Source of the DNA: Escherichia phage ECO111 5-P
DNA: 46,941 nucleotides
Sequence record: OR844768
Reading direction: 5' to 3' (one strand)
The notes beneath the pieces are model-generated. The model worked only from the letters and a program-made list of their open reading frames with translations, ran no database searches and was not told the DNA's origin. Each line of letters starts with the position of its first letter. The first letter of the stretch is position 1. Made by a program: the position numbers and the translations under genes. Below are positions 24,338 to 24,777 of the stretch, piece after piece.

Positions 24338-24532
24338 ATGGCGCATGAAGAGCTGTACGAAGAATCGTTAATCCAGCGACTGAATGAAGTTGAGCGCACT
24401 CGCGAATGGCTGGAATGTGAGCTGAGAGAAGTGCGCAACCGACTGCAACGCAAGCGCAATCAGCAGAGAGACGTTATCGACTGGTCAGGTGATACGCCTA
24501 AATTTAATAATCTTGGGGAGTGGTTGAAATGA
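24338..24532 (+). CDS. hypothetical coiled-coil protein
   Basis: Track ORF; stop overlaps next start (ATGA). Confidence 0.4.
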   Translation: MAHEELYEESLIQRLNEVERTREWLECELREVRNRLQRKRNQQRDVIDWSGDTPKFNNLGEWLK

Positions 24533-24777
24533 CAGTGCCAAATATGCCGATGATGAATGAGGAAGGTTTGCTTGAGTGCCCATTCTGCAACAGTAATGAT
24601 GCATACAGTGATAAGAATACCTACGGCCATTACGTTGCTTGCTCGCAGTGTGGGTGTGGTACTGATGAGTGGCCTCATCAAGCATCAGCAGTGAAGTCAT
24701 GGAACACCCGCAACGGACACCTCTACACCGCAGACGACTTTAATCAGGCGGCAGAGGAACGCGATTATGGACTATAA
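24529..24777 (+). CDS. Lar-family-like restriction alleviation zinc-ribbon protein
   Basis: LLECPFCNSNDA...YVACSQCGCGT...AVKSWNTRNGH matches the Lar pattern CPFCG...C..CG...WNxR; RBS GGGGAG. Confidence 0.5.
   Translation: MTVPNMPMMNEEGLLECPFCNSNDAYSDKNTYGHYVACSQCGCGTDEWPHQASAVKSWNTRNGHLYTADDFNQAAEERDYGL

Follow-up and report, generated by a model that had tools for sequence, protein, structure and literature searches.

Does the small gene at positions 24529 to 24777 (plus strand) of Escherichia phage ECO111 5-P help the phage to escape host restriction? We analyzed a stretch of 46,941 nucleotides (sequence record OR844768), which we call the window. At about 47 kb, it covers almost the whole genome of a phage in the Skatevirus cluster, a group of small siphoviruses whose hosts are Escherichia, Salmonella, and Shigella. 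The gene has 82 codons plus a TAA stop, and its translation is MTVPNMPMMNEEGLLECPFCNSNDAYSDKNTYGHYVACSQCGCGTDEWPHQASAVKSWNTRNGHLYTADDFNQAAEERDYGL. A preliminary description, made from the sequence alone, had recognized it as a Lar-like restriction alleviation gene by the pattern CPFC...C..CGCG...WN.R. As described below, the assignment to the Lar family holds; as judged from sequence, a function in restriction alleviation is plausible but unproven, and it is weakened by the published plating of related phages.

The Lar-like call is already public: many RefSeq records of the Skatevirus cluster read "Lar-like restriction alleviation protein." The call thus has little weight as a discovery, as orthologs in the phage group are already so annotated. 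Across phages, about 200 records encode a Lar-like homolog. The records nearest to the window (swi2, VSt472, Sf11, Bas80/81, and Skate) are about 90-92% identical to it in the aligned parts.

Membership in the Lar family

First, the open reading frame (ORF) at 24529..24777 is a real coding gene under purifying selection, because the ratio of nonsynonymous to synonymous substitution rates (dN/dS) is 0.08-0.33 in comparisons with four relatives. (Features are on the plus strand unless stated otherwise.) The gene is preceded by a Shine-Dalgarno sequence, GGGGAG (24514..24519), with a spacing of 9 nt to the ATG, and GGGGAG, AAGGAG, or AAGGAT serves as the equivalent at homologous loci.

Second, comparisons of profiles and motifs show that homology to RalR/Lar is secure, because it is found by Pfam, phrog_599, BLASTP, and profile-profile matches. 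The Pfam family PF14354 (Lar_restr_allev) matches residues 13-62 of the protein, which correspond to positions 2-58 of the 58 in the profile, at 42.7 bits (gathering score, 28.6; E = 7e-11), a match far stronger than chance would give. RalR itself scores 53.5 bits against this profile, and the orthologs from Bas81, ASO78B, and BUCT610 score 36.6-37.2 bits. The protein also matches phrog_599 ("Lar-like") at 3.5e-16. BLASTP against Rac RalR/Lar aligned 54 amino acids at 30% identity, with all four cysteines and WNxR in register. Finally, when we compared a profile of the phage family (built from 100 representatives) with a profile of the RalR clade by hhalign, the two aligned over 57 columns with a probability of 97.7% (E = 2e-12).

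The pattern that first pointed to the family is a mixture of general and variable parts. We counted residue conservation over 100 cluster representatives of the phage Lar-like family. In the first zinc knuckle, C17-P-F-C20 (24577..24588), each cysteine is present in 99 of the 100 representatives, and the pair aligns with C9/C12 of RalR. The cysteines of the second knuckle, C38-S-Q-C41 (24640..24651), are present as a pair in all 100, and they align with C30/C33 of RalR, so that the spacing of CxxC...CxxC matches RalR. After the second knuckle comes WNxR, as W58-N59-T60-R61 (24700..24711; RalR counterpart, W50-N51-K52-R53), in which W and R are invariant and N and T are conserved at 99% and 97%. 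Thus CPFC, CxxC, and WNxR are features of the whole family (99-100%), but CGCG is not: just 58% of the phage proteins keep its third cysteine, C43, and the RalR sequence at this place is CESR.

The AlphaFold2 (AF2) model has a confident zinc-ribbon core, with strands at residues 25-30 and 33-38, and shows a predicted fold that is a zinc ribbon of 50 residues; we found no nuclease-like structural neighbor for it. A search of PDB sequences with the protein returned nothing significant (the top matches were snake toxins, E = 0.08). The zinc ribbons of Elf1, TFIIB, and TFIIS, which are eukaryotic or archaeal RNA polymerase II factors, share the architecture, but their scores are far from significant and give no hint of further homology.

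RalR (b1348 of E. coli K-12, 64 amino acids) is the founding member of both PF14354 and the NCBIfam family TIGR03655. Like the window protein, it is small, stands alone, and has its gene amid the accessory genes of a phage of enterobacteria, and its CPFC...CxxC zinc ribbon is followed by WNxR. However, the window protein is longer (82 amino acids), it is extended by conserved sequences that RalR does not have (PMMNxEGLL as a lead at the N terminus and a tail of 20 residues at the C terminus), and it has T60 where RalR has K52. Their settings differ as well: the window gene is locked to a putative winged-helix gene in a virulent-type siphovirus, whereas ralR lies beside recT, rcbA, and the RalA small RNA in a lambdoid prophage.

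The Lar superfamily as a whole comprises 11,831 clusters (at 50% identity, from a search at E up to 1e-3). The superfamily proteins that score best mostly have 2-5 tandem Lar domains, and these tandem repeats hint that the working unit of the domain may be a dimer or a multimer. There was no informative fusion partner: the ten long superfamily matches contained repeated Lar domains and unannotated sequence alone.

Evidence on restriction alleviation

The reading that best explains the gene is as follows. Its product is a small, non-enzymatic zinc-ribbon protein. C17, C20, C38, and C41 are predicted to hold one zinc, and a short helix with W58-N59-T60-R61 follows the zinc site. The gene, an ortholog of which is found throughout the Skatevirus cluster, is translated within an operon in which small accessory genes are closely packed, with an ATGA coupling before it and an 11-nt overlap after it. 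By homology to Rac Lar, the protein would most likely bind the host's complex for type I (family IA) restriction-modification and shift it from cutting unmodified DNA to methylating it. Somewhat more infections would succeed as a result, and the progeny would be modified. The effect would probably be partial and would depend on the host's system. The analysis shows a real and constrained gene, a zinc-ribbon fold, and homology to RalR/Lar; which complex is bound, which way it is shifted, and when the gene is expressed are inferred.

The protein would be a functional analog of Ral from phage lambda, which acts through HsdM to relieve restriction by type IA systems and to boost their modification activity (PMC12707154). 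This is an analogy of function that we propose by inference: no Ral family appeared among the Pfam matches of the window protein at E up to 1, and Ral and RalR are treated as unrelated (PMC4041452). A partial role in alleviating type I restriction is the reading that we tentatively prefer, with somewhat less than even confidence.

A number of observations weigh against it. Rac Lar is the only member shown to alleviate restriction and to enhance modification, in its case against EcoKI (King & Murray 1995, as cited in PMC11482910 and PMC4041452), so there is one tested member for a superfamily of 11,831 clusters. The window protein is just 21-30% identical to this sole tested member. The preliminary description had proposed a search with the profile of the Lar family, and its outcome was divided: PF14354 was passed (42.7 bits versus 28.6), but the stricter TIGR03655 (anti_R_Lar) was missed, with 35.1 bits under a cutoff of 39.6 (E = 1.2e-8, positions 1-55 of 55), in contrast to RalR as its founding member. 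We found no structure related to Lar in the PDB, and the mechanism of Lar has been listed as still to be investigated (PMC6158711). Also, RalR has no counterpart for the conserved tail of the phage proteins or for their obligate coupling to a putative winged-helix gene, both of which are described below.

The plating of relatives, which supplies the sole phenotypic data for this phage cluster, is indirect evidence on the same side. Bas80 and Bas81 of the BASEL collection carry an ortholog and grow on E. coli K-12. In the BASEL study, Bas77-81, which are Skatevirus isolates, are called "markedly sensitive to RM systems." Bas81, whose ortholog is 58% identical to the window protein and whose genome has two EcoKI sites, plated at 6e-4 to 1.8e-3 on EcoKI, which is about 1000-fold restriction. 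On EcoCFT_I, it plated at 4e-3 to 1.5e-2. Bas77-80, with one EcoKI site each, plated at 0.02-0.2 (BASEL raw data). The restriction of Bas77-81 simply tracks the number of EcoKI sites, with no sign of immunity. These platings argue against strong protection by the Bas81 ortholog. A modest, partial effect like that of Ral is still compatible with them, because Ral itself rescues the infecting lambda genome just partly.

These data call for caution about the label. "Restriction alleviation" goes back to one experiment from 1995 on a 64-amino-acid prophage protein, and it has been propagated to about 11,800 clusters. According to the best phenotypic data available, restriction systems of types I, II, and III still act strongly on phages with this subfamily. 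When phages are chosen or engineered for therapy or biocontrol, a "Lar-like" gene should not count as evidence of restriction resistance.

Subfamily features and the coupled putative winged-helix gene

Within the phage subfamily, the two ends of the protein are conserved and the center is not. Residues 7-20 and 58-70 are at least 90% conserved as amino acids but free to vary in their synonymous codons, which places the constraint on the protein. The second of these stretches runs into a conserved C-terminal tail (amino acids 62-78, NGHLYTADDFNQAAEER; 24712..24762) that is specific to the subfamily and is not in RalR: among the 11,831 superfamily clusters, just the few closest cover it. G63, Y66, T67, D70, E77, and R78 are each conserved in at least 90%, and AF2 predicts a helix at residues 68-79 with a low predicted local distance difference test (pLDDT) score. 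Synonymous variation is lowered in amino acids 71-82.

The center has two hypervariable segments. The first, amino acids 21-37 (24589..24639), is a predicted beta-hairpin between the knuckles, as judged from the AF2 strands; the second is amino acids 42-57 (24652..24699). Columns in these segments hold a mean of 7-10 residue types, and the frequency of the top residue is 0.39-0.46 in the first segment. We counted at least 28 alleles of the center in 68 genomes. Median omega was 0.26 for the two variable segments together versus 0.09 for the conserved segments, with 21% of unsaturated pairs above 1. This shows relaxed or episodically diversifying evolution; positive selection is unproven, as median omega is below 1. 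The window protein is just 58-61% identical to its orthologs from Bas81 and ASO78B, whereas the neighboring proteins are mostly 88-99% identical, and the best public match to the window's allele is 94% identical. The same operon has a second hypervariable gene (25381-25761, phrog_343), which is 49-59% identical to its counterparts in Bas81, ASO78B, and Skate and is flanked by genes at 88-99%.

The gene directly downstream (24767..25255) encodes a putative winged-helix (MarR-like) protein of 162 amino acids. It matches phrog_1687 at 2.2e-55, and Pfam's MarR_2 matches it weakly (E = 0.057). Its ATG at 24767 overlaps the 3' end of the Lar-like gene by 11 nt, and this overlap is present at 61 of 66 loci, including those of distant Klebsiella phages. 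GAGGAA (24754..24759), which encodes E76-E77 of the Lar-like protein, doubles as the Shine-Dalgarno sequence of the downstream gene. AF2 predicts the order helix-helix-helix-strand-strand for the downstream protein, in amino acids 1-65 only and with an overall pLDDT of 50.6. A search for its homologs gave close relatives alone, and the best results of a profile search of the PDB, at E of about 0.07, were winged helices of the AspA type.

This coupling raises the possibility that the zinc-ribbon and winged-helix genes work together as a module unrelated to restriction-modification, for instance in regulating transcription or replication, either of the phage or of the host. The zinc ribbon would then use its conserved ends to bind the winged-helix protein or some conserved machinery of the host, and "Lar" would be a name at the level of the fold. 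The lack of a RalR counterpart for the tail and for the coupling is consistent with such a module, although we think it rather doubtful.

About equally doubtful is a related proposal, in which the Lar domain has been rebuilt in the Skatevirus cluster as a zinc-ribbon adaptor. Residues 7-20 and 58-78 would be docking patches, the two hypervariable segments would be loops, and the adaptor would form an obligate pair with the winged-helix protein. It might serve, for example, as an inhibitor or decoy of variable specificity for a polymorphic host defense, or as a regulator. If this is true, then the "Lar-like" label on about 11,800 protein clusters is the name of a fold, not of a function.

Upstream, the start codon of the Lar-like gene (24529-24531) overlaps the TGA (24530-24532) of a 64-amino-acid ORF (24338..24532) as ATGA (24529..24532), as the preliminary description had noted in calling the two translationally coupled. 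Of 67 related loci, 49 have ATGA at the start of the gene by an automated choice of starts, even though the upstream gene differs among them. The 64-amino-acid ORF belongs to the same operon, matches phrog_15697, and is coiled-coil-like; it is directly adjacent to the Lar-like gene in 13 related loci. In most relatives, a very basic extra ORF of about 73 amino acids lies between the two; it is absent from the window and from 13 other loci. When we compared the junction with those of three related loci (L003, 11972-12193; L005, 2286-2504; and L001, 4240-4461), ATGA was recreated with or without the extra ORF.

The annotated orthologs are Skate gp29, those of swi2, VSt472, DS8, and Bas80, Bas81_0033, ASO78B_028, and, from Klebsiella phages, BUCT610 gp26 and that of VLCpiS13. 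They share the genome position, the ATGA start, and the 11-nt overlap with the MarR-like gene, at 46-94% identity. The window differs from them in having its own allele of the hypervariable center and in lacking the upstream ORF of about 73 amino acids that is common in relatives.

The Lar-like gene is one of a set of small ORFs that point rightward, with the lysis cassette on one side and the head genes on the other. Upstream of this set, a divergent intergenic region (24004..24078, no strand) has sigma-70-like hexamers on both strands, including a rightward TTGACC-18-AATACT at 24008-24037. These hexamers, together with a promoter annotation at the corresponding site of phage ASO78B, are suggestive of a promoter. 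However, in a scan for promoters and terminators, the site counts, including that of such hexamers upstream of the gene (9 versus 7.9), did not exceed the shuffled expectation. The placement of the Lar-like gene in an early region, which the preliminary description had made, remains a guess because the hexamers are no more common than in shuffled sequence. The leftward arm of this divergent unit includes a DUF6378 protein (23266-23769, minus strand), which scores 27.4 bits against a Pfam cutoff of 27.1 and is 65-82% identical to its relatives.

Other host defenses, DNA modification, and remaining genes

Besides type I restriction, the protein might counter a different host defense, such as type IV (modification-dependent) restriction, which would be relevant if the phage DNA carries 7-deazaguanine. 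In a PhageMaP study, the Lar-like gene 32 of Bas63 was more important in three strains with retained type IV restriction than it was in DH10B; two of these three strains lack intact type I restriction, and the authors proposed an anti-type IV role (PMC11482910). Hypervariable loops would also suit the interface of an arms race, and the window does encode a candidate cassette for 7-deazaguanine DNA modification. One gene of this cassette (14807..15634, minus strand) is a candidate DpdA-like (TGT-family) transglycosylase, which matches phrog_887 (queuine tRNA-ribosyltransferase) at 6e-77 and has no Pfam match at 1e-3. The other (15589..16053, minus strand) encodes a membrane protein of the YhhQ/Vut_1 family, a family of preQ0 transporters (PF02592, 37.1 bits versus a gathering score of 27.2; phrog_4899). 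Nevertheless, we consider an anti-type IV role unlikely. The PhageMaP result is a single, indirect observation from an unrelated phage, whose protein is much nearer to RalR than the window's is. Furthermore, a DpdA of at least 60% identity is present in just 7 phage records, versus about 200 with a Lar-like gene; the two genes are not linked, because most relatives have the Lar-like gene without the DpdA-like one.

The least probable role, and a very improbable one in our view, is that of a RalR-type toxin, that is, a non-specific DNase that damages host DNA or a part of a toxin-antitoxin pair. It would follow from homology to RalR, which was reported to cleave DNA, to be toxic when overproduced, and to act as a non-specific DNase toxin under the control of the RalA small RNA (PMC4041452). 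Mutations at RalR positions 14, 37, 39, 49, 51, and 52 lowered its toxicity, and K52Q abolished DNA cleavage (PMC4041452), but just two of these six positions are kept in the window protein (as T45 and N59). The counterpart of K52 is T60, and 97% of the phage proteins have threonine at this position; a zinc-ribbon fold without a nuclease-like neighbor also argues against a DNase. As for an antisense partner like RalA, the longest complementarity in trans within the window was 13 nt, which was equaled by 19% of shuffles, and Rfam found two tRNAs in the window and nothing else.

The preliminary description had also referred to a putative DNA modification module and, together with the Lar-like gene, to layered counter-defense. 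A candidate module is present, in the form of the DpdA-like and YhhQ-like pair and not of a methyltransferase: we found no methyltransferase among 20 larger ORFs. The two ORFs overlap each other and sit between the genes for the large terminase and the portal, where Bas81 has tiny ORFs alone. The DpdA-like gene is rare in this phage cluster, and Flyfo siphovirus Tbat1_6 carries the closest one (81%). None of the ORFs that we scanned in the window is a gene for preQ0 synthesis, and the cassette looks like the "DpdA-only plus transporter" type of 7-deazaguanine system. For "DpdA-only" phages, the modification status is hard to predict (PMC6884629).

Another candidate is a Stp-like peptide of 27 amino acids (MSNWHNEHIMQWYRRRIKSIINSCEVQ; 10245..10328), which is 82% identical to Bas81_0091 and matches phrog_6763, "activator of host PrrC" lysyl-tRNA endonuclease, at 5.1e-13. 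The table of the BASEL study enters the Bas81 copy as Anti_RM "stp." As several anti-restriction candidates co-exist, layered anti-restriction is plausible from their sequences but unproven.

Several restriction sites are depleted in the window, GATC, CCWGG, and EcoKI sites strongly so, relative to expectations that were computed from mononucleotide shuffles only: there are 39 GATC sites versus about 182 expected, 19 CCWGG sites versus about 69, 4 EcoRI sites versus about 13, and one EcoKI site (36091, minus strand) versus about 5. The recognition sequences behind these counts are general background. Other sequences are enriched, namely TGAN8TGCT (17 versus 6) and CAGCAG (46 versus 18).

Two other ORFs resemble endonucleases. 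A T5orf172/MUG113 (GIY-YIG-like) endonuclease ORF of 290 amino acids (41354-42229, minus strand; phrog_681, 1.4e-64) lies on the opposite strand, flanked by genes for the tape measure and the minor tail. As Bas81 has no gene at this position, the ORF was probably inserted as a homing endonuclease. An HNH-endonuclease-like ORF (10714-11364; phrog_953, 1.2e-72; no Pfam match at 1e-3) is in a stretch that is absent from Bas81. The two tRNAs, tRNA-Arg(TCT) and tRNA-Ser(GCT), are adjacent (35757-35926, minus strand) and are at the same position in Bas81.
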